Assembly (NCBI GenBank): GCA_964057225.1
Contig: OZ059894.1
Location: forward strand, 7,440,001-7,504,000
Length of the DNA: 64,000 bases
DNA from: Auanema rhodensis
Taxonomy: Eukaryota; Animalia; Nematoda
Direction: 5' to 3'
Each line of letters begins with the position of its first letter. Position 1 is the stretch's first letter. The position numbers were made by a program, and so were the translations under genes. Shown in pieces: positions 37,970-64,000 of the stretch. The notes beneath the pieces were generated by a model. That model searched no databases, was not told the origin of the DNA, and saw only the letters and a program-made list of their open reading frames with translations.

Positions 37970-38338
37970 AAACTTTTGCTTTCTTTTGTTTCAGAAACAG
38001 TTTTGATAAAGCTTTCAGTTTCGGAACATCTCTCAAATCCTTTCTTTGGATAATTTCCGGTAAAAAGGTCTAGGCTTATGGTTACGTTGTTTGGATGCAT
38101 CAGGAATAGACGGCGGATCTCTTGTGAGATGATATTCTAGGAGATAATGTCGATTGGACATTGTTTCTTGGATATATTGTGATAAAAAGCTCCAAGCTTA
38201 TGATTACCGTGTTTGGATGCATCAGGAATAGACGGCAGATCTCTTGTGAGATCATATTCTTGGAGATAATGTCGATTGGACATTGTTTCTTGGATATATT
38301 GTGATAAAAAGGTCCAAGCTTATGATTACGTTGTTCGG

Positions 38339-38704
38339 CGTTCCATTCGGAGACTCTATATATGTAACTGCAGGGTTAGAGCCAGACCGACTAGAGGAAT
38401 GAGGAATGGCACCGCCTTCCCTCATGCCCCTATTCGGGAGTTCGCCCCTTTGCAAGCCCATGGACGGTTTGCATCTAACTTAGTTAATCTTATATATTAG
38501 TCTTTGTCTTGTAAATGTAGTTTACTTTATCCTTGTGTTAATGTATTGTAATGATATTGTATTGTGTATAATAAACCTATATATTTCCTTATCTTATGTA
38601 ATCCTTATGCTCTGTTTCCATACCGCTACACTTATGGAATACTATACGCGTAGTTGAGCAGACTACAATGGTCTGTTCAATATACGTAGGAGCATAATGG
38701 AACG
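38339..38704 (+). repeat. 5' LTR (366 bp)
   Basis: Matches 50044-50409 with no difference seen by eye. Terminal inverted repeat CGTTCCATT...AATGGAACG. AATAAA at 38570-38575. Confidence 0.96.
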
Positions 38705-38717
38705 TGGAGGTTCCACC
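38705..38717 (+). promoter_or_regulatory. Primer-binding site, tRNA-Gln
   Basis: TGGAGGTTCCACC directly abuts the LTR and is complementary to GGTGGAACCT-CCA, the 3' end of metazoan tRNA-Gln. Confidence 0.88.
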
Positions 38718-39687
38718 TCGAACTCATTTTTGTCGCAAAAACTCGCATAAAAAGTCCATATTTTGATATCTAAATTAAAACTTCCTCCACGGTTAGCAAC
38801 ATAATGAGGGCGCCAACTTGTATAAGGTGCAGGTACAAGGGATCTCTCTTTTAGAGAGCTAGGACTACATAATTTTGAAATTTCACCCGCTGTCCCCACT
38901 CATAAAACCGTCTGAGTGTCCACCCTTATAATACCGTATCCTGCACCGCTTCTCTTGCATTTTTTTTTGAGGACGTTTGGATCGAAATAGGGGACAATTT
39001 CACCAAACGAAATTTTGATTACATTATTATTTGGCAACGAGGAGTTAGAATGAAATTTTGAAAGCGCACAAAGTTTAATATTTTATTGTGGTCAGGACTA
39101 GAGATTTGAAAGTTAAATTCAGGCGTAAAAGAGCATGCTAACTAAATATTTTTGCGGGAGCCGTTATTCGGTTTTTATTTTTTTTTTGATTGTGAGAATA
39201 GACCACACTAGTCCGAAAAATCCTGGCACAAATTTTATTGCCTGTCAGGTCATTTTGGCGAAAGCACATGGGCTACGGATGTTTTCTTCTCCGTAGAATG
39301 TGTCACCTTCCTCAGCTCATTTTTGTTGCTAACATCATAAGATATTCCCACACACCTACCGTAGTATTCATATTGTAATATTCTATAAATTAGTAGAATG
39401 GTTTAAAGAAAAAAATTGCGTTTTATAAACGAGCTTTGGTCTCAGTCCATTAGTAAAATGAGCAATCTTTTTAAATATTCTCGGAATCTCATTAGCATGC
39501 CAAAATCATTCCGAAAAAGAATCGCCCACGGCTTTTAATAATAACGTGCACATGAGCCATTTTCCCAAGGCGCACGCACTCCTTCTTTATTAATAAGCTC
39601 GACCAAAGTTTGTGTTATGGAAAAAAAAAAAAAAGAGAGAGAGAACAAATGAGTGAAATTAAGTATTTATTATATATGAAACAATTG

Positions 39688-40221
39688 TTAAAAGCCCCAT
39701 TTAAAATGCAACTGTCTCACAAATTCTATAGGCTGTGAGATGGGCTCATCGCTAGGCTCTAAATACTGCGAATACACCGAATCCGCAGAGGTCCTTAGCA
39801 ATAAGCCCATAGGAGACTGTTCATAAAATAAATAAATTTTAAACAAAATTTTAGACATATAATCATAAAAATCATGAGACTTATGCTCATACCAATTCCA
39901 AGGGGATGCGACCAGATTTGGGTTTTCATACCAATGCGCGCACAAGTCGGTGAGGCACCATCGCCGGATAGCTGCAACCTCATCCGCTATTTCCTGCATT
40001 AGGGAGAAGTTTACTAATCCCCTTCCCAGATAATGCATCTTTAAATCCTCAATAAACTAAAAATTCTTATTAAGATAACATGTTTCTTTGTTTTAACCAA
40101 CCATCTTAATTATGTCTGGGTGCGGCCTATAAGCTAACACTTCGTCTTGATCATACAAGACGAGGTCAGCGTACAGCTTCCTCAAGACAAAAGTCATTCC
40201 CGATAGACCTTCATAAGCCAT
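39688..40221 (-). CDS. Antisense two-exon accessory gene, ~162 aa, unknown function (exon 1 40221-40102, intron 40101-40057, exon 2 40056-39688)
   Basis: ATG at 40221 gives MAYEGLSGMTFVLRKLYADLVLYDQDEVLAYRPHPDIIKM. A 45-nt GTTGGT...TTTTTAG intron with an in-frame TAA joins it in frame to FIEDLK plus the 116-aa ORF 39688..40038. AATAAA on the minus strand at 39666-39671. Confidence 0.72.
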
Positions 40222-40633
40222 TCTTTGATTTATTTTTTTTTTTCAGCTCTACAAATATAAAGATTCTTATGCATAAAAAGGGGACATAAAACGACTGAAA
40301 ATCTCTCTCATACTTTCAAGAATTCAATTAGAGTAAAGTATTAAGATTGAGGCTAGAAAGAGCGAAGACCAAAAAAATTTATAATTGATGAACATCTGTG
40401 AAATAGAATAAAGAAAAGAGAATACGGTAGATAGGCGGAGCCAGATCTCAGGCCAAGATTTTAAAACTCTTTCTCATCTAATAACGATTCTCGGCGAAAG
40501 ACGCCACGTCTCAATCTTCAAACGTTTCTTACTTTTCCTATAACCGACCCGAATTTCTTGTCACTCATTCAACGTCAACATCCCCCATATAACGAAACAC
40601 TCGCGGTTTTTCCGAACCAAGAGTGATTCCAAA

Positions 40634-43600
40634 GTGGCACGAAGATACTCTTCGGCCGTCCCTGCTCTATACCCTTCTGAGTCCAGTGACGACATCGCAG
40701 TCGCCAGTCGAACCAGAAGCCGCACTCGACTCCTCAGTGTTCAGATTGAAGAGCCTGAACAAGAGGTAAAACCCAAAGTCGAGAAAACCTTCATTCCTCG
40801 AGAAGGCACGTATTCACCTCCGGACAACACCGAGGAGGACCCTGATTTCTATATTCAGGACTACAATATTCAAACTTCAGCTTCAACTCCAAAGGTACAC
40901 TCTTTTAAAAGTAATAAAAAGATTCAAAAAATTCAAAAACCAAAACAAATAACCTCTAATACTTCACCAGCCACTCCCCACCTAAACTTATCAACTTTAT
41001 CAGTTAATACTGATAACGATCTTGCATCTTCTTTTGAACTAACTCTAACACCGCAGGCATTTTCCACTCCGATAGAAAACTCACAACTTAATAAAACCTC
41101 ATCTCTCACTATTCGCAAATCACCCTTATCAGTTATCACTGATAAGCTTGATTCGAAAAAGCTTGATTCTAAAAAAATTAATAAAAGAAAAACTAATACA
41201 CCGCGTAGGCGCTCAACCTCTAATAATCCCGTAGAACCAAATCAGGAAATTACCGAAGTTTTGCCCTTATCACTAACTACTGATAAGTTCAAAAGTAAGA
41301 AATCTTTAACAGCTCGCTTAATAAAAGTTTTGAATTTGTCTCCAGGGGAGGTAACAACAGAACAAGTTGATAACTCTCTTCACGTATCCTCCAACCCAAC
41401 CCTTAATAAGTCAGATAGCGCTATACCCAGCTCAAGCGTATCAATACATTCGACGCCTCAGGCAACGAGTCGAATTATCAAACTCCCAGGGAAGCGGTTC
41501 TCCTCAGCCGCCCCTACCATTAGTTATCCAACATCTGGTAACTCGAAAAAGGGAGGTAAGAATTTAACGGCGAGAAGCTCAGGCAGTAAAGGGATTACGT
41601 CATCTCGCACATACCCTGAGGATATACCAACCATGACGGAGACACCACGTCTTCCGGGAGCTGGTAAATCTACCATTGCGCACGCATTAAGCTCACCTTA
41701 TTGCCCCATATACGACGGAAGTCGTAACTTTAGAGATTTCGTGGCAAAGTTTAATACCTTTTCTAACGCCTTAGGCTTAGTGATGCCCGAAAGACTAACT
41801 ATTTTACCATTACTATTGAAAAATGATAGAGCAGAGGAAGCTTATTTAGAGCTACCTGACAAGGTCAGAACTGCTGGACCTTGGGTTACCCTAATAGAAG
41901 AGTTAACATCCAAGCTGTGTCCCGAATACAATCAAGACCCTGCCCTTATCACACTTCAAAACAGCACTCAAGGCGATTTATCAATTGATGGTTTTGCACA
42001 AACGTTAAGAAACCTCAGCTTAAATGCTTTCTCTAATAGTGATACTCATAAAGATCACATTCTGAGGTCCACATTTTTGAGAGGCTTGAAAAATACGATA
42101 CGCCCAGGGGTAATTCGAGCAAAACCCAAAACTTTTGCTGAGGCTGTTGATAGTGCTCGCTGGGAGGAATCAATTGCAAACCAAGTAGCAGACCCTCAGG
42201 CGCTATTGGTTAACGCAATTGAAAGAACTTTCCCCCCGCGCAGAAACAATGGTGGGAGAGGTATGGCAAGAGGTTATCAATCTTTTAATAATAAAAATTA
42301 TCAAAATTATAATAATTATAACAATTATCATCCAAACTTTCAAAACAATCAAAATTATCATAAATTTTCAAAAAATCAAAAAGGCTGGAATTTCCAAAAC
42401 CCATTTGCTAGGAACCGCAATTTTGGTGACCGCGGTCGAAATTATCAGAATCAAAATCAAAATGGGTATCAAAGAAGCCATAATGCATCACAAAATCAAG
42501 AAATGAGCAATAATAGACAGAGAAATAACAGTACCTTTAGGGGAAATAACAACAATAGAGGCAGAGGTAGAGGCTCAAGAGTCAATAATTTGACTCTGAT
42601 ATCTCCTTTGACTTTAGCCGTAGCTTTATCAGTAATCTTATCACTGGTTACAACAGCTGAAGCATACCAGCTATGTACTAAAGCTACTGGAGGAGCCCTT
42701 CTCCGTCCCCCATCTCTCCGAAAATGCTTATTACCACCAATAAAGCATATCTTACGAACAAAAGTTCATCTTTATACAAGGAATCAAACGGCACATGAAT
42801 GGGATGCATGGAGATGCTCCAAAGAAATTCATAAAATGTGTATCAGAGACCTTTTGTTCCTTAGAGATACCAATACAACGATAGCGAGAATTGAAAAGAT
42901 ACCAGCTGCAGAATGCAGACTGGCAGTGAGAGATAGAAGATGGAATTGGAGTGAATTAAAGAAGATCGACAGCATAACATATGCAACTGACGAGCCTTCC
43001 TTCTCGCCAGGCCGATCTTTTAATAATGAACTATGTGAAGAGAAAGCCAGATTGGTTATCGAAAGAGGGGTTATGACACGGATGCCAGATGAAACTATAA
43101 TCTCCAATTTAATACTAAATACTGAAGGATGCTTAGCGCATCATGGAGAATGTGCATCAGATACCTCAATCATCATATGGGAGAAACAGCCTTATGAATA
43201 TCGATGCAACTATATCGACATGAGTGAATATGATGTGATAATTGGAGACGGCATTATTCTGTTACCAACCACTCAATCAGCCCTTGTAATCGATCAAAAA
43301 GAGATACCGAAGCAAATATCTTCTTGTTTTAAACAGCCAATCTTCCACACCACAACTGGCAATTACATTCTCTTACCACAGTACCCAAATGACACCAATA
43401 TCCATGTTTTAATAGAGAGAGAATATAAGAAACTTCCGGCGAAAAGAGATAAAAGAGCAATTGCGGAATGCACGGTTGAATTAAACAAGGAGTGGATACA
43501 AAAACAGGAAGATTTTGAAACTTTAATATTAAATATTTGTCCTTATCCTTTCTTACGACCGGTGATGAGTAATCCTGGTATTTATCAGATAATACCGCTT

Positions 43601-46600
43601 ATAAAGGCCAGACGAGCTGTCAACCCTTCATATTCAATTATTGACTGGGTTTCAGCACATCCCGAGAAGTTTTATTTCTTCTTAAGAAGTCCCGTATCTG
43701 ATAAATCCATACAACGTTTCCTTCAAACATACGAAATACACGACCCTGAGGAAGCAATACTTTATTTTCTTGCGCAAAAGGAACTGGCAGCAACCACTCG
43801 CGGCGCTATACGGTATTTAACCTCACAACAATTATTAGAACAGATAGGTGACAGATTAACAGCACACGAATTTGACGAAAAACTGCTAGAAAAAGACGGA
43901 TCCTACCGTGAAAGAGCCGAAAGCATAGCGATGGAGTTAGCTTATACACCGGTAATATTTGAAAACAATCTGTCGGTACCATCAAGGCAAGAGGTTTTAA
44001 AATCCTTTGTGAACATGCCGCCGATCCGACCAACTCTAACAACTGACAATGCTGATGAGCGTATAGTACTTAGAAACACTCTTTACTTATACCATAACTT
44101 GATGACATTGCGAGTAATAAGGCCAAATAAAACAGCAGCAGCCGTAGATGATGAAAAGTTCCGACAATTAACAATCAATGTGCCAGATACCAACAAATTA
44201 TATCGAGATAAAGATTCTAACTACGGTATATCGATAGGGCCCCACCCTCGCATTCAAAACCCAAGCGCAGATACACGCCAGCTACTTATAAAAACATTTT
44301 TACCACTGTTAGAGGATATTGAAACACCGCCTTATCTGACTAGAAGACTGTCATTAACGACAACAACGGACAAACCCGCTTCACTAGTTCAGGAGACAAC
44401 TAAAAGCCATACGACTCGGATTCCGACGACAACCACAGTTGAGACGACAACAGCCGCGATAACTACGACTCTCTCGCCAACAACATTAGCAACAGTCACT
44501 GACACGGCGTCACGAATCTTAAGGAAACAAAGAACATCATCTCCACCCGTAGAAACCAGAGAAATTCAGGCTCAGGCAACGTATACAGCGTCAAAAGTGA
44601 ACAACGAAATACAATTCAACCTCAACGTATCTCGCAGAATAGCTCAAGATCATCTACAATATACAACAACACTCATACAAGAAGAGCTACAGAAACATTT
44701 CATGGAATCTTATGAATCCATATGTGAGATTCAAAATAGATACCTCGAGCTATGGCGTTCTATTTTACACATAGAACCTACAATAGCAATGAGGACTATT
44801 TTAGGAAGAGAGGATATTGCAGCCCGTTTCGTAGGCAGCGATATAGTTCATGTTCATATATGCCTACCTCTTCAACCTAAAGCTGTTTATCATAATCATA
44901 AGATCAATGATACATGCTATTTGGAAACACCAGTAATAACAGAAGATGAGAGATTATATTTTGCTGCTCCAGGATCAAGAGACTTATTAACACATGGAAA
45001 AGAGATAGATTGCGAACATGTACCCACAGATGTATACTATCAAAATGGAGAATGGATAAATATAAATGGATCGGTTGAAGTAAAACCAATATCACTCTTT
45101 GATAAAGCGCAATACCACCAATTAACACCTTTAAAGTTCACAGGCGCTAACTTATACACCAATTTATCATTGAGAGTTTACTCAATGTCAACAGCTATTG
45201 CATATGGAGCAAGTTTAGCATCCATACGACAGAACCATGTTTTACATACTATTCACAACGATCCAAAAATTACGTCCGCCTTTAATCTTTTGAAAAAGGG
45301 CAGTGACTATATCTCTAAAGCAGCTGAGTTCACAACTTCCGCCTGGACTAGCGTAAAGCAATTTCTAATAGGATCAATTGAGAGAACACTCATCTTCATA
45401 GGATCAATGGTTACGATTGCCGCAGTATTAATAATTCTTTTCGTTGTTGCTAAATTTTGGTTCTTCAGAGCCACTCCACTAACCGTAATGCATGTCCACG
45501 AAATAGATAATGAGCCCCCAAGCTATGAAGAAACATTGGAACTTGTAAGCCGCCCAGACCAACAGATGCCAGATAACATCATGAAGCAATACTATCCTGC
45601 TTTAGTAACATTTATTCCAATCGCAATACCATTTGTTGCTTCTATTGTATCAGCGGAAACAAAGTTACCATTAATATATATATCAGTTGAAGATAAACTG
45701 ATTTTAGCTTTATGGGATTCAGGCTCATCAGTGTCATATGTTAGGCTCTCCACCCTCAAATATCTGAACATGGCCGAAAATGTCAAGAAGAGACATTTAG
45801 TAGCGATGGCAGCCAACAAGTCCACTTTCACATTTTATGGAAAGATAAATCTTGTAATTGAAATTGCCGGTTACGAGATCGAACACACCTTTTTGGTCTC
45901 AAACGATCATGACTGTCCTGCTCCCGCTTTAATTGGACTAGATTTCATGAAAGCGCTTGACAGCGAAAACATCGACGTCAGCCTTAAACCATCCAAGAAG
46001 AGGTTGGAGATTGGAAACAATGCCATCCCATTAATAGGAAACGAATCTATTAAGCATACGGAGATAACTGTGAATATCATTAATTTAAGAACAAAAACAT
46101 TAAAGCCTGATGAAGAGGCACCTATCCCAATAAAGACAGATAAACCACTAGAATCTAACGAAGTGGTTGTCTTAGGGGATAGTGGAAGCGCATTAAAATC
46201 ATTATATCCAACTGCGTTTCGTGATACCAGTGGAGTATATGTTATGTTCCGTAACAATACCGATGAAACAATAGCTATGGAAGCTAATTCAGTCATCGGA
46301 CAGGCAATAATTGGAGAAATTCCGGCTTGTGAACCCTTTAAGCATAAGCCAATTCTACCATATGTTCCGCCAGAGGCCGATTGGGAGAGTAAACTACCAT
46401 ATTTTCCAAGAGACTTCATAAAAGATCTTGATCTAGAGAATGCTGATCTCACGAAAGAAGAAAAACATGAGCTTACAAAAATAATTGAAAGCCATCGTGA
46501 GGCATTTCTTAACGAGGACAGGAAAATAGGCTTATTTAAAGGTCCTATAGAGCATACCATACCATTGAGAACAGATATGGATATGCCAAAGCCGAGAATA

Positions 46601-49339
46601 ACACGTATTCCCTTAGGAAAACAGGAAGAAATTGAAAAACAAGTCAAAGAAATGCTTGAGCAAGGCATAATAGAGCCTTCTACATCTCTATTTAATAGCC
46701 CTGTAGTACTAGTTAAGAAGAAAGATGACACGTATAGGTTTGTGACAGATTTTCGAGCTTTAAATAATGTCACACGCAAGCAAACTTATGTCATTCCAAG
46801 CATTTCTGACATAGTTGATTTGGCAGCAGGCGCCCAATTTTTCTCAAACTTCGATTTAGTGTCAGGATTTTTTCAAATATCCTTGAGAAAATCAGATCGA
46901 CCACTAACAGCATTTACGACCACATCCGGCACATACCAGTACAAACGGATGCCGATGGGCCTTTGTGGAGCCCCTCATACCTTTCAAACAGCAGTAAGGT
47001 ATTTGCAAAGTAAATGTTCTTGTAAACTATTTGTTTATTTGGACGATCTATTAGTTATATCTGATACAAGAGAACAACATCTCAAAGATATCGATGATTT
47101 ACTGCAAGCAGTAGAAGAATTGGGAATGAAGATAAAGCTTAAGAAATGCGCTTTTGCTCAACCAGAAGTGAAATTTCTAGGACTTATTGTAGGACGTCAA
47201 GGTATAAAACCTGACCCTCAAAAAGTCGCCGCCATACAAGATTATCCGGCACCAAAGAATGCAACAGGTGTACGAGCATTCTTGGGAATGGTTGGATTCT
47301 TTCGCAAATTCATGAAAGATTTTGCACGTATCGCAAGCCCTTTATACGATCTGACAAAGGCAGATACTGAATTCAAATGGGAAAACAAACATCAAGAAGC
47401 TTTAGACCTCCTTAAAAGAAGTTTAATACAGGCACCCGTTTTAAGCCCACCTAAATCGGACCGCTTGTTTATAGTTGAAAGCGACGGTAGTAACATCGCC
47501 ATAGGTGCTGTATTATTACAACCGGAAGATCCAAAACAACCTCTGAAAAATCTACACCCTATCGCATTTGCAAGCAGAAAACTAGTTAAAGCCGAACGTA
47601 ACTACGCACCAATCGAGATAGAAGCATTAGGCCTTGTATATGCATTAAATCAATTCCGTACATACATTCTTGGAACTCATACTATATGTATTACGGACCA
47701 TCGACCTCTTACCAGCTTAATGACACGCAGAGACTTATTTGGTCGTCTTGCGAAGTTCCAGCTGGTCATCCAAGAATATGATATTGAAATAAAATATCGC
47801 GCAGGCCAATTAAATAAAGTATGCGATGCTCTATCTCGATATATAGGTGAAGAAGCTAACGATGCTAAGCCGGAAACAAAGAAGAAGAAAATGGAAGAAA
47901 TTCACATTAACGCCATAAATACACCAACAATAAAGGAAATTCAACTAAGCACCCCTTGGATTAAACGGACGATAGCGGAGATTGAATATAGAGCACAAAA
48001 GAACATGACAGCTAATGACAGATATTGTGTCATAAATGACTTGCTCTATACAAAACCAACAGACAAAAAGCCACAACCCGCTATCGTAATACCACAAGAA
48101 CACCCCATAATTGAGGAAATAATCAAAGTTTTTCATGAGGATCCTACAATTGCAGCACATCAAGGAATTATTAAAACAAAAGAAGCAATTCTAAGAAGAT
48201 TCTATTGGACAAATATGCAGAACGACATTACTATATTCATCAAGAACTGCATTAAATGTGCTCAAAGAAAAAAAGATCCACATTCCATGACGGTACAACC
48301 AATAGGTCATTTTGAGATACCAAGCAAGCCATTTGAACGAGTCCACATGGACGTAATGGGACCATTTCCCCCTTCAAAAAGAAACTGTACCTACGTCATT
48401 ACCATGCAAGACGCATTTACAAAATGGTCAACAACAATTGCTGTACCACAAATAACAACGGAAATCACAATTGATCGATTTCTAAGACATTTCGTTTACA
48501 TTTTTGGACCACCCCATCGCTTGATCACCGATAGAGGTTCAAACTTTGTATCTAAAAAGTTCGAAGAAATGTGTACTAAACTTGGAATCAAACATGAACC
48601 AACACTACCACACCAAAAGAACTCAAATGGACAAGTGGAAAGACTTCACCGAACCCTCGAAGAAGGATTAACCCACTACTTAAAAGAGGACCTTAGTGAC
48701 TGGGATACTGTATTACCAAAAATCACTTTTGCTATTAACAATATTCAGCACGCGACTACAGGGATTGCGCCATACATTGCATTATTCGGTAAAGAATGCA
48801 GAATGTCAATGGACGCTGAATTACCAGAAACGATCACCAAAATTCAAGAAATTTCTGAAGAATTACTCCAAAGAAGACCAGATATGGACAAGAGAGACGA
48901 AATAATAAAGAACCGCATAGCTAAAAATCAAGAAAATGCGAAAAAGAAGAAAGATAGAACGCAAAGAGCACACCATAGAGACATTCAACCGGGCGACATG
49001 GTGATGACGACTATAAAATCACACCAAATCGGCCAAAAGCTTCGGAAAAGCTATGATGGACCATGCGAAGTCATCAACGTAGAAGGATCAAAAGTTCAAA
49101 TCAGAAATTCATCAGGAAAACTACAAGATATCCACAAAGATAACTTGAAAATCTTCTCTCCTGCTTCACAAAACATCTCTTACAACACTCGCGCAAGGTT
49201 TCGAGAAAGTCAAGCAGAAGAAGATAGCGACATCGAAATAATAGAAGTGATCAACAGGAACAACAAGGATAGCATAGATACAGAGCCAGAAGATGAAAAT
49301 GAAGACGAAATATGGCTTCCGAGGAATGAAGAAGAATAA
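40634..49339 (+). CDS. Gag-Env-Pol polyprotein (2901 aa from GTG; frame open from 40544; first ATG at 41633)
   Basis: One uninterrupted ORF containing capsid-like Gag, an N/Q/RG-rich region, a signal peptide, a Cys-rich glycoprotein, a TM helix, aspartic protease (LWDSGS), RT (YLDD), RNase H (ESDGS, EIEALG, TDHRPL) and integrase (HHCC, D-D-E, YDGPC). Confidence 0.95.
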   Translation: MARRYSSAVPALYPSESSDDIAVASRTRSRTRLLSVQIEEPEQEVKPKVEKTFIPREGTYSPPDNTEEDPDFYIQDYNIQTSASTPKVHSFKSNKKIQKIQKPKQITSNTSPATPHLNLSTLSVNTDNDLASSFELTLTPQAFSTPIENSQLNKTSSLTIRKSPLSVITDKLDSKKLDSKKINKRKTNTPRRRSTSNNPVEPNQEITEVLPLSLTTDKFKSKKSLTARLIKVLNLSPGEVTTEQVDNSLHVSSNPTLNKSDSAIPSSSVSIHSTPQATSRIIKLPGKRFSSAAPTISYPTSGNSKKGGKNLTARSSGSKGITSSRTYPEDIPTMTETPRLPGAGKSTIAHALSSPYCPIYDGSRNFRDFVAKFNTFSNALGLVMPERLTILPLLLKNDRAEEAYLELPDKVRTAGPWVTLIEELTSKLCPEYNQDPALITLQNSTQGDLSIDGFAQTLRNLSLNAFSNSDTHKDHILRSTFLRGLKNTIRPGVIRAKPKTFAEAVDSARWEESIANQVADPQALLVNAIERTFPPRRNNGGRGMARGYQSFNNKNYQNYNNYNNYHPNFQNNQNYHKFSKNQKGWNFQNPFARNRNFGDRGRNYQNQNQNGYQRSHNASQNQEMSNNRQRNNSTFRGNNNNRGRGRGSRVNNLTLISPLTLAVALSVILSLVTTAEAYQLCTKATGGALLRPPSLRKCLLPPIKHILRTKVHLYTRNQTAHEWDAWRCSKEIHKMCIRDLLFLRDTNTTIARIEKIPAAECRLAVRDRRWNWSELKKIDSITYATDEPSFSPGRSFNNELCEEKARLVIERGVMTRMPDETIISNLILNTEGCLAHHGECASDTSIIIWEKQPYEYRCNYIDMSEYDVIIGDGIILLPTTQSALVIDQKEIPKQISSCFKQPIFHTTTGNYILLPQYPNDTNIHVLIEREYKKLPAKRDKRAIAECTVELNKEWIQKQEDFETLILNICPYPFLRPVMSNPGIYQIIPLIKARRAVNPSYSIIDWVSAHPEKFYFFLRSPVSDKSIQRFLQTYEIHDPEEAILYFLAQKELAATTRGAIRYLTSQQLLEQIGDRLTAHEFDEKLLEKDGSYRERAESIAMELAYTPVIFENNLSVPSRQEVLKSFVNMPPIRPTLTTDNADERIVLRNTLYLYHNLMTLRVIRPNKTAAAVDDEKFRQLTINVPDTNKLYRDKDSNYGISIGPHPRIQNPSADTRQLLIKTFLPLLEDIETPPYLTRRLSLTTTTDKPASLVQETTKSHTTRIPTTTTVETTTAAITTTLSPTTLATVTDTASRILRKQRTSSPPVETREIQAQATYTASKVNNEIQFNLNVSRRIAQDHLQYTTTLIQEELQKHFMESYESICEIQNRYLELWRSILHIEPTIAMRTILGREDIAARFVGSDIVHVHICLPLQPKAVYHNHKINDTCYLETPVITEDERLYFAAPGSRDLLTHGKEIDCEHVPTDVYYQNGEWININGSVEVKPISLFDKAQYHQLTPLKFTGANLYTNLSLRVYSMSTAIAYGASLASIRQNHVLHTIHNDPKITSAFNLLKKGSDYISKAAEFTTSAWTSVKQFLIGSIERTLIFIGSMVTIAAVLIILFVVAKFWFFRATPLTVMHVHEIDNEPPSYEETLELVSRPDQQMPDNIMKQYYPALVTFIPIAIPFVASIVSAETKLPLIYISVEDKLILALWDSGSSVSYVRLSTLKYLNMAENVKKRHLVAMAANKSTFTFYGKINLVIEIAGYEIEHTFLVSNDHDCPAPALIGLDFMKALDSENIDVSLKPSKKRLEIGNNAIPLIGNESIKHTEITVNIINLRTKTLKPDEEAPIPIKTDKPLESNEVVVLGDSGSALKSLYPTAFRDTSGVYVMFRNNTDETIAMEANSVIGQAIIGEIPACEPFKHKPILPYVPPEADWESKLPYFPRDFIKDLDLENADLTKEEKHELTKIIESHREAFLNEDRKIGLFKGPIEHTIPLRTDMDMPKPRITRIPLGKQEEIEKQVKEMLEQGIIEPSTSLFNSPVVLVKKKDDTYRFVTDFRALNNVTRKQTYVIPSISDIVDLAAGAQFFSNFDLVSGFFQISLRKSDRPLTAFTTTSGTYQYKRMPMGLCGAPHTFQTAVRYLQSKCSCKLFVYLDDLLVISDTREQHLKDIDDLLQAVEELGMKIKLKKCAFAQPEVKFLGLIVGRQGIKPDPQKVAAIQDYPAPKNATGVRAFLGMVGFFRKFMKDFARIASPLYDLTKADTEFKWENKHQEALDLLKRSLIQAPVLSPPKSDRLFIVESDGSNIAIGAVLLQPEDPKQPLKNLHPIAFASRKLVKAERNYAPIEIEALGLVYALNQFRTYILGTHTICITDHRPLTSLMTRRDLFGRLAKFQLVIQEYDIEIKYRAGQLNKVCDALSRYIGEEANDAKPETKKKKMEEIHINAINTPTIKEIQLSTPWIKRTIAEIEYRAQKNMTANDRYCVINDLLYTKPTDKKPQPAIVIPQEHPIIEEIIKVFHEDPTIAAHQGIIKTKEAILRRFYWTNMQNDITIFIKNCIKCAQRKKDPHSMTVQPIGHFEIPSKPFERVHMDVMGPFPPSKRNCTYVITMQDAFTKWSTTIAVPQITTEITIDRFLRHFVYIFGPPHRLITDRGSNFVSKKFEEMCTKLGIKHEPTLPHQKNSNGQVERLHRTLEEGLTHYLKEDLSDWDTVLPKITFAINNIQHATTGIAPYIALFGKECRMSMDAELPETITKIQEISEELLQRRPDMDKRDEIIKNRIAKNQENAKKKKDRTQRAHHRDIQPGDMVMTTIKSHQIGQKLRKSYDGPCEVINVEGSKVQIRNSSGKLQDIHKDNLKIFSPASQNISYNTRARFRESQAEEDSDIEIIEVINRNNKDSIDTEPEDENEDEIWLPRNEEE
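41633..42580 (+). other. gag: Gag domain: capsid-like region plus N/Q/RG-rich basic tail, no zinc knuckle
   Basis: PIYDGSRNFRDFVAKF, MHR-like QGDLSIDGFAQTLR, FLRGLK...PKTFAEAV; followed by NNYNNYHPNFQNN...RGRGRG. Confidence 0.8.
42590..45466 (+). other. env: Envelope-like glycoprotein domain (class III fusogen, gB-like)
   Basis: Signal peptide LTLISPLTLAVALSVILSLVTTAEA|YQLC, many Cys and N-x-S/T sequons, furin-type KRDKR (43442-43456), gB-like core CEIQNRYLELW...GREDIAARFVGSDIVHVHIC...CY (44723-44920), TM LIFIGSMVTIAAVLIILFVVAKFWFF (45389-45466). Confidence 0.85.
45660..49339 (+). other. pol: Pol domains PR-RT-RNase H-IN
   Basis: DSG at 45716; YLDD at 47036-47047; RNase H from ~47470; integrase HHCC from ~48134 with catalytic D/D/E near 48350/48530/48638; GPY/F-like motif near 49051; acidic tail, no chromodomain seen. 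Start boundary is approximate. Confidence 0.95.
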
Positions 49340-50032
49340 CAACAAGATAATGCTACGTTATTTAAATTATTGTAACAAAATAACGATGAATTAAAAAAAA
49401 AAAAAAAAATTAATGCTAAATAACATTCAAAATAAAAATAGCATTTAATAGAGATTGAGAAAGGAAAAATAAGGCAAATTCTAAACGAGGAGATGTTATG
49501 ACTAATGGTTCCAAGTTACCGTAATCCTATGCGGACTAGAGGACATTTTGACAACCATCCGAGCTCCATGTGCCTCTCCAAATAAGATGAGATGAACACT
49601 GGTAGGCGTATCAACCACAATTTCATCTTAAGTGGTAGTCTCCATTAGTAATCAAGGATTCACTCTGGGAGACATATGGAGACACATTATTAAATCATAA
49701 TCTCGGTTCAATTTAGAAATGAGTACTTCTTGAGACCATTAGTCAAAATAATAACATATTCCCATTCATTACTAGCCCCTTTATTCTACAATCTCTATTA
49801 GGAAATGCTTGAATATTAAGATAATTAATTTATGAAATTAATAATATTCTAATTCATCGTCCCTTCATATTATATTGAACCCTTCTTATAAATTATTGTA
49901 ATTTTGTTTGTATACTAACTAAAACTCTATCATACTATAGTTATTGTGAAGCTAAAACAATTGAACTCTAAAACTCAGTTACATATAAGCCCAAATTTTT
50001 GTTTAAAATATCGCGAGGTCGCGACAATCTTT

Positions 50033-50041
50033 GAAAAAGGG
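50033..50041 (+). promoter_or_regulatory. Polypurine tract
   Basis: GAAAAAGGG, separated from the 3' LTR by the dinucleotide CA. Confidence 0.75.
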
Positions 50042-50043
50042 CA

Positions 50044-50409
50044 CGTTCCATTCGGAGACTCTATATATGTAACTGCAGGGTTAGAGCCAGACCGACTAGA
50101 GGAATGAGGAATGGCACCGCCTTCCCTCATGCCCCTATTCGGGAGTTCGCCCCTTTGCAAGCCCATGGACGGTTTGCATCTAACTTAGTTAATCTTATAT
50201 ATTAGTCTTTGTCTTGTAAATGTAGTTTACTTTATCCTTGTGTTAATGTATTGTAATGATATTGTATTGTGTATAATAAACCTATATATTTCCTTATCTT
50301 ATGTAATCCTTATGCTCTGTTTCCATACCGCTACACTTATGGAATACTATACGCGTAGTTGAGCAGACTACAATGGTCTGTTCAATATACGTAGGAGCAT
50401 AATGGAACG
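50044..50409 (+). repeat. 3' LTR (366 bp)
   Basis: Direct repeat of 38339-38704; AATAAA at 50275-50280. Confidence 0.96.
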
Positions 50410-50469
50410 TCGGATGCATCAGGAATAGACGGCGGATCTCTTGTGAGATGATATTCTGGAAGTTAATGT

Positions 50470-50541
50470 GGCCGAATGGTCTAGGGGTATGATTCTCGCT
50501 TTGGGTGCGAGAGGTCCCGGGTTCAAATCCCGGTTCGGCCC
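50470..50541 (+). tRNA. tRNA-Pro(TGG), first copy after the LTR element
   Basis: Canonical 72-nt copy starting ~60 bp after the 3' LTR. Confidence 0.95.
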
Positions 50542-52228
50542 AAAATTTTGCTTTCTTTTGTTTCAGAAACAGTTTTGATAAAGCTTTCAGTTTCGGAACT
50601 TCTCTCAAATCCTTTCATTGGATATATTCTGGTAAAAAGGTCTAGGCTTATGGTTACTTTTTTTGGATGCATAAGGGATAGACGGCGTTCTCTTGTGAGA
50701 TGTTATTCTGGGAGATAATGTGGCCGAATGGTCTAGGGGTATGATTCTCGCTTTGGGTGCGAGAGGTCCCGGGTTCAAATCCCGGTTCGGCCCAAAATTT
50801 TGCTTTCTTTTGTTTCAGAAACAGTTTTGATAAAGCTTTCAGTTTCGGAACTTCTCTCAAATCCTTTCATTGGATATATTCTGGTAAAAAGGTCTAGGCT
50901 TATGGTTACGTTGTTTGGATGCATCAGGAATAGACGGCGGATCTCTTGTGAGATCATATTCTAGGAGATAATGTGGCCGAATGGTCTAGGGGTATGATTC
51001 TCGCTTTGGGTGCGAGAGGTCCCGGGTTCAAATCCCGGTTCGGCCCAAACTTTTGCTTTCTTTTGTTTCAGAAACAGTTTTGATAAAGCTTTCAGTTTCG
51101 GAACATCTCTCAAATCCTTTCTTTGGATAATTTCCGGTAAAAAGGTCTAGGCTTATGGTTACTTTGTTTGGATGCATAAGGGATAGACGGCGTTCTCTTG
51201 TGAGATGTTATTCTGGGAGAAAATGTGGCCGAATGGTCTAGGGGTATGATTCTCGCTTTGGGTGCGAGAGGTCCCGGGTTCAAATCCCGGTTCGGCCCAA
51301 AATTTTGCTTTCTTTTGTTTCAGAAACAGTTTTGATAAAGCTTTCAGTTTCGGAACTTCTCTCAAATCCTTTCATTGGATATATTCTGGTAAAAAGGTCT
51401 AGGCTTATGGTTACGTTGTTTGGATGCATCAGGAATAGACGGCGGATCTCTTGTGAGATCATATTCTAGGAGATAATGTGGCCGAATGGTCTAGGGGTAT
51501 GATTCTCGCTTTGGGTGCGAGAGGTCCCGGGTTCAAATCCCGGTTCGGCCCAAAATTTTGCTTTCTTTTGTTTCAGAAACAGTTTTGATAAAGCTTTCAG
51601 TTTCGGAACTTCTCTCAAATCCTTTCATTGGATATATTCTGGTAAAAAGGTCTAGGCTTATGGTTACTTTGTTTGGATGCATAAGGGATAGACGGCGTTC
51701 TCTTGTGAGATGTTATTCTGGGAGATAATGTGGCCGAATGGTCTAGGGGTATGATTCTCGCTTTGGGTGCGAGAGGTCCCGGGTTCAAATCCCGGTTCGG
51801 CCCAAAATTTTGCTTTCTTTTGTTTCAGAAACAGTTTTGATAAAGCTTTCAGTTTCGGAACTTCTCTCAAATCCTTTCATTGGATAAATTCTGGTAAAAA
51901 GGTCTAGGCTTATGGTTACTTTGTTTGGATGCATCAGGAATAGACGGCGGATCTCTTGTGAGATGATATACTTTGAGATAATGTCGATTGGACATTGTTT
52001 CTTGGATATATTGTGATAAAAAGCTCCAAGCTTATGATTACCGTGTTTGGATGCATCAGGAATAGACGGCAGATCTCTTGTGAGATCATATTCTAGGAGA
52101 TAATGTCGATTGGACATTGTTTCTTGGATATATTGTGATAAAAAGGTCCAAGCTTACGATTACGTTGTTTGGATGCATAAGGGATAGACGGCGGATCTCT
52201 TGTGAGATGATATTCTAGGAGATAATGT

Positions 52229-52300
52229 TGTCGAATGGTCTAGGGGTATGATTCTCGCTTTGGGTGCGAGAGGTCCCGGGTTCAAATTCCGGTTCGGCTC
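52229..52300 (+). pseudogene. Degenerate tRNA-Pro copy
   Basis: TGTCGAA 5' end, C61T in the B box (AAATTCCGG) and TTCGGCTC 3' end. Confidence 0.7.
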
Positions 52301-54225
52301 AAAATTTTGCTTTCTTTTGTTTCAGAAACAGTTTTGATAAAGCTTTCAGTTTCGGAACTTCTCTCAAATCCTTTCATTGGATATATTCTGGTAAAAAAGT
52401 CTAGGCTTATGGTTACTTTGTTTGGATGCATAAGGAATAGACGGCGTTCTCTTGTGAGATGATATTCTAGGAGATAATGTGGCCGAATGGTCTAGGGGTA
52501 TGATTCTCGCTTTGGGTGCGAGAGGTCCCGGGTTCAAATCCCGGTTCGGCCCAAAATTTTGCTTTCTTTTGTTTCAGAAACAGTTTTGATAAAGCTTTCA
52601 GTTTCGGAACTTCTCTCAAATCCTTTCTTTGGATAATTTCCGGTAAAAAGGTATAGGCTTATGGTTACGTTGTTTGGATGCATCAGGAATAGACGGCGGA
52701 TCTCTTGTGAGATGATATTCTAGGAGATAATGTGGCCGAATGGTCTAGGGGTATGATTCTCGCTTTGGGTGCGAGAGGTCCCGGGTTCAAATCCCGGTTC
52801 GGCCCAAAATTTTGCTTTCTTTTGTTTCAGAAACAGTTTTGATAAAGCTTTCAGTTTCGGAACTTCTCTCAAATCCTTTCATTGGATAATTTCCGGTAAA
52901 AAGGTCTAGGCTTATGGTTACGTTGTTTGGATGCATCAGGAATAGACGGCAGATCTCTTGTGAGATCATATTCTAGGAGATAATGTCGATTGGACATTGT
53001 TTCTTTGGATAATTTCCGGTAAAAAGCTCCAAGCTTATGATTACCGTGTTTGGATGCATCAGGAATAGACGGCAGATCTCTTGTGAGATCATATTCCAGG
53101 AGATAATGTCGATTGGACATTGTTTCTTGGATATATTATGATAAAAAGGTCCAAGCTTATGATTACGTTGTTCGGATGCATCAGGAATCGACGGCGGATC
53201 TCTTGTGAGATGATATTCTGCGAGATAATGTGGCCGAATGGTCTAGGGGTATGATTCTCGCTTTGGGTGCGAGAGGTCCCGGGTTCAAATCCCGGTTCGG
53301 CCCAAACTTTTGCTTTCTTTTGTTTCAGAAACAGTTTTGATAAAGCTTTCAGTTTCGGAACTTCACTCAAATCCTTTCATTGGATATATTCTGGTAAAAA
53401 GCTCTAGGCTTATGGTTACTTTGTTTGGATGCATCAGGAATCGACGGCGGATCTCTTGTGAGATGATATTCTGGGAGATAATGTCGATTGGACATTGTTT
53501 CTTGGATATATTGTGATAAAAAGGTCCAAGCTTATGATTACCGTGTTTGGATGCATCAGGAATAGACGGCAGATCTCTTGTGAGATCATATTCTAGGAGA
53601 TTATGTCGATTGGACATTGTTTCTTGGATATATTGTGATAAAAAGGTCCAAGCTTATGATTACGTTGTTCGGATGCATCAGGAATCGACGGCGGATCTCT
53701 TGTGAGATGATATTCTGCGAGATAATGTGGCCGAATGGTCTAGGGGTATGATTCTCGCTTTGGGTGCGAGAGGTCCCGGGTTCAAATCCCGGTTCGGCCC
53801 AAACTTTTGCTTTCTTTTGTTTCAGAAACAGTTTTGATAAAGCTTTCAGTTTCGGAACATCTCTCAAATCCTTTCTTTGGATAATTTCCGGTAAAAAGGT
53901 ATAGGCTTATGGTTTCGTTGTTTGGATGCATCAGGAATAGACGGCGGATCTCTTGTGAGATGATATTCTAGGAGATAATGTCGATTGGACATTGTTTCTT
54001 GGATATATTGTGATAAAAAGCTCCAAGCTTATGATTACCGTGTTTGGATGCATCAGGAATAGACGGCAGATCTCTTGTGAGATCATATTCTAGGAGTTAA
54101 TGTCGATTGGACATTGTTTCTTGGATATATTGTGATAAAAAGCTCCAAGCTTATGATTACCGTGTTTGGATGCATCAGGAATAGACGGCGGATCTCTTGT
54201 GAGATGATATTCTAGGAGATAATGT

Positions 54226-54297
54226 TGCCGAATGGTCTAGGGGTATGATTCTCGCTTTGGGTGCGAGAGGTCCCGGGTTCAAATTCCGGTTCGGCCC
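54226..54297 (+). pseudogene. Variant tRNA-Pro, G1T plus C61T (also at 57340, 59459, 62703)
   Basis: TGCCGAA...GGTTCAAATTCCGG. Confidence 0.6.
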
Positions 54298-57200
54298 AAA
54301 ATTTTGCTTTCTTTTGTTTCAGAAACAGTTTTGATAAAGCTTTTAGTTTCGGAACTTCTCTGAAATCCTTTCATTGGATATATTCTGGTAAAAAGGTCTA
54401 GGCTTATGGTTACGTTGTTTGGATGCATCAGGAATAGACGGCGGATCTCTTGTGAGATCATATTCTAGGAGATAACGTGGCCGAATGGTCTAGGGGTATG
54501 ATTCTCGCTTTGGGTGCGAGAGGTCCCGGGTTCAAATCCCGGTTCGGCCCAAACTTTTACTTTCTTTTGTTTCAGAAACAGTTTTGATAAAGCTTTCAGT
54601 TTCGGAACTTCTCTCAAATCCTTTCATTGGATATATTCTGGTAAAAAGGTCTAGGCTTATGGTTACTTTGTTTGGATGCATCAGGAATAGACGGCAGATC
54701 TCTTGTGAGATCACATTCTAGGAGATGATGTCGATTGGACATTGTTTCTTGGATATATTGTGATAGAAAGCTCCAAGCTTATGATTACCGTTTTTGGATG
54801 CATCAGGAATAGACGGCAGATCTCTTGTGAGATCATATTCTAGGAGATAATGTCGATTGGACATTGTTTCTTGGATATATTGTGATAAAAAGGTCCAAGC
54901 TTATGATTACGTTGTTTGGATGCATAAGGGATAGACGGCAGATCTCTTGTGAGATCATATTCCAGGAGATAATGTGGCCGAATGGTCTAGGGGTATGATT
55001 CTCGCTTTGGGTGCGAGAGGTCCCGGGTTCAAATCCCGGTTCGGCCCAAAATTTTGCTTTCTTTTGTTTCACAAAAAGTTTTGATAAAGCTTTCAGTTTC
55101 GGAACTTCTCTCAAATCCTTTCATTGGATATATTCTGGTAAAAAGGTCTAGGCTTATGGTTGCGTTGTTTGGATGCATCAGGAATAGACGGCGGATCTCT
55201 TGTGAGATGATATTCTAGGAGATAATGTCGATTGGACATTGTTTCTTGGATATATTGTGATAAAAAACTCCAAGCTTATGATTACCGTGTTTGGATGCAT
55301 CAGGAATAGACGGCAGATCTCTTGTGAGATCATATTCTAGGAGATAATGTGGCCGAATGGTCTAGGGGTATGATTCTCGCTTTGGGTGCGAGAGGTCCCG
55401 GGTTCAAATCCCGGTTCGGCCCAAACTTTTGCTTTCTTTTGTTTCAGAAACAGTTTTGATAAAGCTTTCAGTTTCGGAACTTCACTCAAATCCTTTCATT
55501 GGATATATTCTGGTAAAAAGCTCTAGGCTTATGGTTACTTTGTTTGGATGCATCAGGAATCGACGGCGGATCTCTTGTGAGATGATATTCTGGGAGATAA
55601 TGTCGATTGGACATTGTTTCTTGGATATATTGTGATAAAAAGGTCCAAGCTTATGATTACCGTGTTTGGATGCATCAGGAATAGACGGCAGATCTCTTGT
55701 GAGATCATATTCTAGGAGATTATGTCGATTGGACATTGTTTCTTGGATATATTGTGATAAAAAACTCCAAGCTTATGATTACCGTGTTTGGATGCATCAG
55801 GAATAGACGGCAGATCTCTTGTGAGATCATATTCTAGGAGATAATGTGGCCGAATGGTCTAGGGGTATGATTCTCGCTTTGGGTGCGAGAGGTCCCGGGT
55901 TCAAATCCCGGTTCGGCCCAAACTTTTGCTTTCTTTTGTTTCAGAAACAGTTTTGATAAAGCTTTCAGTTTCGGAACATCTCTCAAATCCTTTCATTGGA
56001 TAATTTCCGGTAAAAAGGTCTAGGCTTATGGTTACGTTGTTTGGATGCATCAGGAATAGACGGCAGATCTCTTGTGAGATCATATTCTAGGAGATAATGT
56101 CGATTGGACATTGTTTCTTTGGATAATTTCCGGTAAAAAGCTCCAAGCTTATGATTACCGTGTTTGGATGCATCAGGAATAGACGGCAGATCTCTTGTGA
56201 GATCATATTCCAGGAGATAATGTCGATTGGACATTGTTTCTTGGATATATTATGATAAAAAGGTCCAAGCTTATGATTACGTTGTTCGGATGCATCAGGA
56301 ATCGACGGCGGATCTCTTGTGAGATGATATTCTGCGAGATAATGTGGCCGAATGGTCTAGGGGTATGATTCTCGCTTTGGGTGCGAGAGGTCCCGGGTTC
56401 AAATCCCGGTTCGGCCCAAACTTTTGCTTTCTTTTGTTTCAGAAACAGTTTTGATAAAGCTTTCAGTTTCGGAACTTCACTCAAATCCTTTCATTGGATA
56501 TATTCTGGTAAAAAGCTCTAGGCTTATGGTTACTTTGTTTGGATGCATCAGGAATCGACGGCGGATCTCTTGTGAGATGATATTCTGGGAGATAATGTCG
56601 ATTGGACATTGTTTCTTGGATATATTGTGATAAAAAGGTCCAAGCTTATGATTACCGTGTTTGGATGCATCAGGAATAGACGGCAGATCTCTTGTGAGAT
56701 CATATTCTAGGAGATTATGTCGATTGGACATTGTTTCTTGGATATATTGTGATAAAAAGGTCCAAGCTTATGATTACGTTGTTCGGATGCATCAGGAATC
56801 GACGGCGGATCTCTTGTGAGATGATATTCTGCGAGATAATGTGGCCGAATGGTCTAGGGGTATGATTCTCGCTTTGGGTGCGAGAGGTCCCGGGTTCAAA
56901 TCCCGGTTCGGCCCAAACTTTTGCTTTCTTTTGTTTCAGAAACAGTTTTGATAAAGCTTTCAGTTTCGGAACATCTCTCAAATCCTTTCTTTGGATAATT
57001 TCCGGTAAAAAGGTATAGGCTTATGGTTTCGTTGTTTGGATGCATCAGGAATAGACGGCGGATCTCTTGTGAGATGATATTCTAGGAGATAATGTCGATT
57101 GGACATTGTTTCTTGGATATATTGTGATAAAAAGCTCCAAGCTTATGATTACCGTGTTTGGATGCATCAGGAATAGACGGCAGATCTCTTGTGAGATCAT

Positions 57201-62955: not shown

Positions 62956-63027
62956 GGCCGAATGGTCTAGGGGTATGATTCTCGCTTTGGGTGCGAGAGG
63001 TCCCGGGTTCAAATCCCGGTTCGGCCC
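62956..63027 (+). tRNA. tRNA-Pro(TGG), last copy in the window
   Basis: Canonical 72-nt copy. Confidence 0.95.
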
Positions 63028-63232
63028 AAACTTTTACTTTCTTTTGTTTCAGAAACAGTTTTGATAAAGCTTTCAGTTTCGGAACTTCTCTCAAATCCTT
63101 TCATTGGATATATTCTGGTAAAAAGGTCTAGGCTTATGGTTACTTTGTTTGGATGCATCAGGAATAGACGGCAGATCTCTTGTGAGATCACATTCTAGGA
63201 GATGATGTCGATTGGACATTGTTTCTTGGATA

Positions 63233-64000
63233 TGTCACATCTGCTAGCACATGGTAAACATGTGCGCGCTATTCAAATAGCGGGAGCCTGAACAAGCCCC
63301 GCCTACAACATGGGACACACATGGCACTCTTGCTTCTGGCCTAACCCAGATAGGTTGTCTTATAGCCATGTGAGTCTCATCTCTATATCATCTATATATA
63401 TACTCTATTTAATACTTTATTATATCTCTTTATATTCTTTCTTAATGTAATTCTTATATTGTATTTTCTTGTTATCTGATAATGAATCTTTTTCTCTTTA
63501 AGTATTTGTCTTAATAAGGAAATCGGGGCGTTCGGGTCTGCCTACCTAAGGAACAAGGTAGAAGTACATATATCTTCCGACCATGAAAAGACGGGAAGAA
63601 ACAATATGTAACGTGGAGGTTCCACCTTGCTTACTTTACTGTTAATTTATTGACAGCAAGTTTACGAGACTTTTGGACTTAATTACCCAACAGTGAGGAG
63701 TAACCGAGCCGTGCACCATGATTTCCCCAAAAATTATTTTGGCTACCACTTCTCCTCCGCTCAACGAAAACTGGGAGGTGTCTGAGACGTTTGGGGAAAC
63801 TATCAGACAATAGTTTTGACGAGCGTTACCTTTTTGTTATGCACGCGCGTGCTATTTTGATTCATTACTTTATGATGTGAATGTCCAGTGTGGCAACAGA
63901 GCTCACTTTTTAGCTGAGTTGTTTGGAAGCTGGAGGCTGTTGGGATAATTTTATTTACGATTTATTAATTTTGATTCACATCCAAGGGTTCATCAGGGTT
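63233..64000 (+). mobile_element. 5' end of a second LTR retroelement (putative 5' LTR 63233-63613, then leader; truncated by the window)
   Basis: The array breaks abruptly inside a 122-bp unit at TGTCACAT. The segment ends ATGTAACG (imperfect inverted repeat) and is immediately followed by the same PBS as element 1. Confidence 0.85.
63614..63626 (+). promoter_or_regulatory. Primer-binding site, tRNA-Gln (element 2)
   Basis: TGGAGGTTCCACC, identical to 38705-38717. Confidence 0.85.

Follow-up and report, generated by a model that had tools for sequence, protein, structure and literature searches.

The stretch of DNA analyzed here (the window) comprises 64,000 nt of the Auanema rhodensis contig OZ059894.1 (positions 7,440,001 to 7,504,000 of the forward strand), and all coordinates below are positions within it. 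An intact Ty3/gypsy LTR element of the order gag-env(gB)-pol occupies 38339-50409 (+) and interrupts a tRNA-Pro array. It is flanked by two copies of the target-site duplication TCGG (left copy 38335..38338, right copy 50410-50413) and is bounded by a 5' LTR of 366 nt (38339..38704, +), with CG..CG termini and a short inverted repeat, and by a 3' LTR (50044..50409, +). The two LTRs are identical at 367 of 367 aligned bases, the last of which is common to the primer-binding site and the target-site duplication, and the insertion is therefore very recent. Both LTRs run from CGTTCC to GGAACG and the duplicated target is 4 nt long; the usual LTR termini are TG..CA. The primer-binding site (38705..38716, +) is of the tRNA-Gln type and complements exactly, over 12 nt, the Gln tRNA end given in supplementary table 1 of PMC13524379, and a polypurine tract lies at 50033..50041 (+). 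Thus the LTR pair, target-site duplication, primer-binding site and polypurine tract by which a GAG-ENV-POL element with a gB-type env is recognized are all present.

A single open frame of 2931 codons (40544..49339, +), delimited from the ORF listing and Pfam, contains in order an ATG-less extension of 363 codons, the presumed gag, a gB-type env, protease, reverse transcriptase (RT), RNase H, followed by integrase. The gag was assigned by its position, that part of the frame having no Pfam family match. The pol region was identified by matches to RVT_1 (6e-32), RT_RNaseH (2.7e-28) and rve (3.6e-15) and has the order protease-RT-RNase H-integrase, with a protease match (7.4e-4) that is below the curated cut-off. 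The env lies upstream of pol and matches PF24664 (5.7e-15) above the cut-off and PF00606 (6.4e-9) below it, which places the fusion protein in the gB/Monjiviricetes type, class III. Hydrophobic segments are found at residues 684 and 1617 of the long ORF, and a search of low sensitivity with its N-terminal part against longer proteins returned no homologue.

The beginning of this frame is unusual in composition. It is open for 363 codons (40544-41632) before the first ATG at 41633, and all three sense frames lack an ATG over the 1242 nt of 40391-41632, where shuffled sequences contain a mean of 6.8 and reached zero in 1 of 2000 cases. The ATG-less extension is rich in Ser, Thr and Pro and is basic (54 K+R, 33 D+E). 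Read from the sequence, these features suggest a non-AUG start of the extension with leaky scanning to the gag ATG. In addition, a stop-free frame of 292 codons (45907-46785, -) lies opposite protease and RT and is probably a shadow of the sense codons.

The leader between the 5' LTR and the long ORF measures 1837 nt (approximately 1.84 kb), and a second gene lies within it on the minus strand, between the primer-binding site and the long ORF. Exon 1 (40102..40221, -) carries the putative start codon and 40 codons, the ATG at 40221 being preceded by a run of A. A 45-nt phase-0 GT-AG intron with an in-frame TAA follows (40057..40101, -), and exon 2 (39688..40056, -), which appears in the ORF listing, contains 122 codons and a TAA stop. 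The intron ends are GT..TTTTTAG, and its GC content is 0.22 as compared with 0.42 in the exons. Splicing removes the in-frame stop and joins the 40 and 122 codons into one frame of 162 amino acids. An AATAAA at 39666..39671 (-) is a candidate, and likely, poly(A) signal. An Rfam scan of 38339-41700 found no family.

Most of this anatomy had been proposed in the initial annotation, and it was borne out in the sequence: TTTTCAG at 40301-40295, TTTGTAG at 40255-40249 and the ATG at 40221 in an A-rich context are all present, as are the 40-codon exon, the 45-nt GT-AG intron with its in-frame stop and the 122-codon exon. Two details required adjustment. The AATAAA, given as about 17 nt past the stop, is present at a distance of 16 nt. 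The product, described as Trp/Tyr-rich and 162 amino acids long, has that length but is only modestly enriched (Trp 3.1%, Tyr 8.0%, all aromatic residues 16.7%).

The length of exon 2 is not significant in itself, since of 1000 dinucleotide-shuffled versions of the 1837-nt leader, 60 contained an open frame of at least 122 codons. A one-intron model of at least 162 codons was reached in 1 of 1000 such shuffles.

Splicing was examined in assembled contigs from four public runs of one study, which are unstranded and are regarded as RNA by guess, none being recorded as RNA. Among the pieces listed, a joint at 40056/40102 ('skips 45, CT..AC') was found in three of the four runs, in one contig each, with shorter sides of 229, 78 and 57 nt; the fourth run has no contig at this joint among those pieces. 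The ends of the joint read CT..AC and so correspond to GT..AG when the minus strand is read, which places the splicing on that strand. Thus the 40102/40056 junction, which the initial annotation had named as the one to look for, is present in probable, unstranded RNA of three of the four runs. It is the only joint among those listed across 38340-50040; none of the joints listed for the contigs on that interval is on the sense strand, and none leads from the 3' LTR. Over the gene, the contigs agree with the sequence of the element itself, with no loose end listed between 38723 and 49631. At 40370, outside both coding regions, one extra A in a homopolymer was seen in two of the four runs while one covered run is without it, which means that another copy or allele exists.

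The frame could have arisen by chance, or a DNA copy that lacks the 45 nt could mimic splicing, so that there would be no functional gene at all. The frequency with which shuffled leaders produce a frame as long as exon 2 would allow this, as would the presumed RNA nature of runs that all come from one study. However, in three runs the segment that is skipped is bounded by precisely the GT..AG predicted, its removal restores one frame, and a homologue that is 59% identical has kept both the frame and the C-terminus. We regard this explanation as highly improbable. The claim of the initial annotation that the leader contains a spliced antisense protein-coding gene therefore holds, given the contig junction, the homologue and the position between the LTRs, and the gene is almost certainly real and expressed.

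The homologue was identified in a full HMMER pass of exon 2 against 1,835,955,588 protein representatives, which returned a single match, P0001 (E 4.3e-38). P0001, whose source is one contig of 1035 nt, is identical to exon 2 at 71 of 121 aligned residues (59%), evenly spread over the whole exon, with two one-residue indels, no frameshift and a common KWGF C-terminus. Directly ahead of the exon-2 match, P0001 starts with the protein letters MFQ. A gene caller that started within an intron ending at the same phase-0 junction would produce such a start, and the P0001 start is apparently an acceptor read as codons, with the intron in the same position. A search of proteins with a two-sequence profile gave one match among 26 candidates, again P0001 only, and a word index returned no homologue of exon 2; exon 1 has no homologue among these results. 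Exact look-ups of five proteins of the window in the protein collection found none of them present. The same profile matched none of 92 candidate stretches in metagenome contigs and none of 45 in viral contigs. The RT of the element matched none of 34 candidates in viral contigs and the env none of two, and the RT search of metagenomes returned 42 loci of distant elements (best identity 41-45% over the full query), at which env, gag, either exon and the two-sequence profile gave no match.

The conservation between exon 2 and P0001 was compared with a neutral model of substitutions only (roughly 0.25 changes per site on a single lineage and no indels). Of 5000 runs that diverged neutrally to the identity of P0001, 106 still had an open frame. 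The observed substitutions are weakly more conservative than neutral ones, the observed mean BLOSUM score being reached in 231 of 5000 runs, and the share of positive changes does not differ from neutral (1833 of 5000). These comparisons, which are of sequences only, indicate that the antisense frame has been under selection.

This selection could date from a time before capture, when the gene was still a host gene. According to this explanation, the gene is a captured, lineage-specific host gene carried as a passenger, and its antisense orientation merely explains why its intron has survived. Its anatomy is host-like, with a short AT-rich intron, an AATAAA and a GC3 of 0.47 as compared with 0.33 in the polyprotein, and the context of P0001 is visible only within its 1035-nt contig. 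Capture of extra ORFs by LTR elements has also been documented in rotifers (PMC5408684) and plants (PMC7264820). Several observations argue against a passenger. First, a single relative in 1.84 billion representatives, together with the profile search, indicates that this is not a widely conserved host gene. Secondly, no near-identical host copy appears as a loose end among those listed, at a likeness cut-off of 90%. Third, the element, whose LTRs are identical, still has the gene with its frame, intron and poly(A) signal intact, and contigs that are probably RNA show expression of the gene. The passenger explanation is accordingly rather unlikely, and the gene has probably been kept because it serves the element.

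The orientation of the gene accounts for the persistence of its intron. The genomic RNA of the element is the sense strand, in which an antisense intron and an antisense poly(A) signal are ignored. Since the gene faces away from the genomic RNA, the gene, its intron and its poly(A) signal are copied intact in each round of reverse transcription, and the identical LTRs together with the intron still present in the DNA show that such copying was recent. The initial annotation had stated that an antisense intron survives reverse transcription, and this element is an instance of it.

The 5' end of the antisense message would be expected to lie close to the start codon. Eight ATGs occur upstream between 40650 and the start codon, two of them behind the candidate acceptor TTTTCAG (40295..40301, -), where they open two short upstream ORFs (ATG 40287 and 40274), and none behind TTTGTAG (40249..40255, -), the candidate trans-splice acceptor of the gene. 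Because of these upstream ATGs, the working 5' end should be near, either through trans-splicing at 40249 or through a close transcription start. One spliced contig spans 39828-40649 unbroken, through both candidate acceptors, and neither loose ends at these acceptors nor an SL leader were found among those listed in the contigs; start sites are not visible in contigs, and unstranded assembly can merge reads from both strands, so such contigs speak neither for nor against the divergent promoter around 40300-40540 and the SL trans-splicing that the initial annotation had proposed.

The strongest sense acceptor-like site of the element, 11 T of 12 followed by CAG, lies at 40232..40246 (+), and by analogy it is a candidate trans-splice site of the gag-env-pol mRNA; it can be likened to the SL1 site in the leader of Cer1 (PMC3315495). 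The sense site, which ends at 40246, and the antisense TTTGTAG, which ends at 40249, stand back to back, an arrangement that was noticed after the fact. The sense T-run is partly explained by the A-rich 5' context of the antisense gene, as the bases are the same. Under the hypothesis that both acceptors are used, sense RNA would resume at 40247 and antisense RNA at 40248, so that the mRNAs would overlap by 2 nt. Only the genomic RNA would then pair with the antisense message, and the mature mRNAs would avoid forming double-stranded RNA.

The predicted product has 162 amino acids, a mass of 19.3 kDa and a pI of 5.1, and is thus acidic. Its highest 19-residue hydropathy is 0.9, with no membrane segment, and no basic cluster of the KRKK type was found in exon 1, exon 2 or P0001. 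Pfam contains no family that matches either exon or P0001, including bZIP, DNA-binding, TRP28 (PF04195) and CCHC families, and the best PHROGs match has an E of 0.12. Structure models were made for exon 2 (pLDDT 53.5) and P0001 (pLDDT 47.0) only and are of low confidence; both display the same pattern, in which four to five helices are followed by about 29 loosely structured residues and then by a last helix. The fold comparison that the initial annotation had suggested for the product was made with the exon-2 model and gave no Foldseek match at E 0.001. The best VIA hit of that model (Z 5.3 at rmsd 5.8) was set aside as a generic helical match, the best PDB sequence match (E 0.14) was treated as chance, and the best Atlas scores (0.76 for Peptidase S28 and 0.81 for DUF3800) are below a useful level and differ between the two homologues. 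Two conserved motifs were also considered as leads. The first is the C-terminal WG shared by the gene and P0001, which we take to be Argonaute-hook-like, and the second is the shared C-L-x-x-L-C-x-x-x-Y, which is presumably BC-box-like with atypical first and last positions. Neither lead gained further support, and no SOCS-box match accompanies the second.

These features are more readily reconciled with a small soluble binding module than with an enzyme, with a fusogen or with an export factor that binds RNA. The proposed sequence of events would start with a host-like spliced mRNA from an internal promoter, with a short 5' end probably produced by trans-splicing at 40249. This mRNA would be exported and translated without help from the element, before or apart from the genomic RNA. 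The soluble, helical product of 19 kDa would then bind a host or element protein, not RNA, which is the weakest step of the proposal, and as an adaptor it would shield the element from host silencing or restriction. We tentatively prefer this reading, in which the product may be a protein-binding adaptor with an anti-defence role, and hold it with less than even confidence.

The initial annotation offered three functions, a direct RNA export factor, a silencing suppressor and a captured host gene, and an acidic protein fits the first of them poorly. A related possibility is a regulator of the CERV or Rev kind, which would enable the unspliced genomic RNA to exit the nucleus, or to bypass the strong sense acceptor at 40246, possibly with the help of an RNA-binding partner. 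There is a precedent in Cer1, a nematode Ty3/gypsy element that needs CERV, which a spliced mRNA encodes, for export of its genomic RNA (PMC10309623) and that must skip consensus splice and SL1 sites (PMC3315495). However, CERV has 517 amino acids, is encoded in the sense direction and contains KRKK, whereas the product described here has 162 amino acids, is antisense and acidic and has no basic cluster. Contact with RNA or the nucleus is more plausibly ascribed to the basic ATG-less extension of the long ORF, and no sense splice joint is among those listed. Because the product is acidic and predicted to be helical and has no basic patch, an RNA binder of this kind is less likely than a protein-binding adaptor, and we consider it doubtful.

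The gene could instead act as a brake on the element, in the manner of HBZ, with the protein repressing the LTR or the antisense RNA pairing with the leader and feeding RNA silencing. HBZ and APH-2/3/4, which are produced from spliced antisense transcripts, lower sense expression (PMC10186651), a double-stranded RNA role has been proposed for plant antisense ORFs (PMC7264820), and the whole antisense gene is complementary to the genomic RNA. On the other hand, the product matches no bZIP or DNA-binding family and has no basic region, and the gene is 9.8 kb from the 3' LTR. The conservation is at the protein level, so pairing of RNA alone is not the whole role. A brake is therefore improbable, and roles other than those named here share a small remainder of probability. 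The anti-defence adaptor remains our preferred, if tentative, reading of the product.

Nematode GAG-ENV-POL Ty3/gypsy elements with an HSV/gB-type env were reportedly described by Sacco et al. in 2022. The element in the window resembles the members of this group treated in PMC13524379 in its gene order, with a gB-type env between gag and pol, and also in its tRNA-Gln primer-binding site, its LTRs of approximately 370 nt and the long leader found in several Caenorhabditis members. The GAG-ENV-POL order is known in Nematoda, Bryozoa and Platyhelminthes (PMC13524379). Judged by this order, the Gln primer site and the short T-rich intron, a nematode host is likely. The main text of PMC13524379 contains no occurrence of 'antisense' or 'extra ORF', and the passages considered here describe no leader gene. 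In its supplementary table 1, Gln-primed elements make up 8 of the 36 nematode rows, and all eight are from Caenorhabditis. The distance from the first LTR to the gag start is 1.2-1.9 kb in six of these eight elements, as compared with 1.84 kb here, and 140 and 303 nt in the remaining two; these lengths were obtained by subtraction from the listed coordinates, with a 3000-nt extension, and the criterion for the gag start is not stated in the source (PMC13524379). By analogy, room for such a leader gene may be a lineage trait, and similar genes may be hidden in those leaders.

Several known systems share features with the gene. CERV of Cer1 is likewise an extra protein of a nematode Ty3/gypsy element that is produced from a spliced mRNA and has homologues only in a narrow lineage (PMC10309623, PMC3315495). 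It is the one tested nematode precedent, as an export factor and not as an anti-defence factor; it is encoded in the sense direction by five exons, the first of which are common to gag, and ends in the 3' ORF (PMC10309623). The gene described here, in contrast, is antisense, has two exons, is separate from gag and lies in the 5' leader. Plant Ty3/gypsy elements also carry antisense accessory ORFs, namely Grande gene23, the TRP28 ORFs of Retand, and RIRE2; the Grande ORF has its own internal promoter, and the functions of the plant ORFs are unassigned in these reports (PMC7264820, PMC11963269). Retand and Grande have the ORF placed between pol and their 3' LTR, whereas here the gene is between the primer-binding site and gag, is spliced, has no TRP28 and belongs to an animal element with an env. 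HTLV-1 HBZ and the APH proteins of HTLV-2/3/4 are similarly accessory proteins encoded by spliced antisense transcripts; the viruses are true retroviruses whose 3' LTR drives these transcripts, and HBZ has a bZIP (PMC10186651), whereas the present gene has no bZIP and adjoins the 5' LTR. In Drosophila, sORF1 and sORF2 of the MDG1 group are also small accessory ORFs upstream of gag in animal Ty3/gypsy elements, and sORF2 is a transmembrane, fusogen-like protein of env-less elements (bioRxiv 10.1101/2025.03.14.642691). Unlike sORF2, the present product has no membrane segment, such as the single TM helix of FAST-like proteins, and its element already has an env. Lastly, Cer19-ORF2 of Caenorhabditis is likewise an additional gene that is expressed and lies between the two LTRs of an element from a nematode, but it carries CCHC gag-knuckle signatures (PMC7084138), and the present product has no CCHC family match. 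Thus the gene resembles an accessory gene in its working, yet it differs from each known system in a feature that defines that system. In the literature searched, no animal Ty3/gypsy element is described as having a spliced antisense gene in its 5' leader, and a description may exist in Sacco et al. 2022, Ganko et al. 2001 or some supplements.

Animal Ty3/gypsy elements are usually described as having gag, pol and sometimes env. A conserved, spliced and expressed antisense gene of no known family in the leader of an element with an env would amount to an accessory gene such as complex retroviruses have, in a region that searches for sense ORFs pass over. A broader proposal, that spliced antisense accessory genes form a family in the long leaders of nematode gag-env-pol elements with products that blunt silencing, is unlikely on present evidence. 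If such a family exists, annotation pipelines that seek sense ORFs have missed a whole class of genes. Should the protein act against RNA silencing or regulate the genomic RNA, it would bear on the activity of retroelements in nematode germlines, which are rich in RNAi.

The surroundings of the element provide some further observations. The array on either side (1-38338 and 50410-63232) consists of higher-order tandem units of 122 and 253 nt with tRNA-Pro(TGG) genes, and its 26-nt tRNA core is present in 129 copies in the window. Loose ends at the primer-binding site (38690-38723) occur in all four runs and indicate that the organism carries more elements with this primer site. At 63233-64000 the array holds another LTR element, different from the first but with the same tRNA-Gln primer site (63614); it matches the first element over only 22 nt around the primer-binding site, and the portion in the window, an LTR and about 390 nt of leader, has no match to the antisense gene. 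A distance of 60 nt separates the end of the first element from a downstream tRNA gene (50470), and the two insertions in one tRNA array may reflect targeting near Pol III genes.
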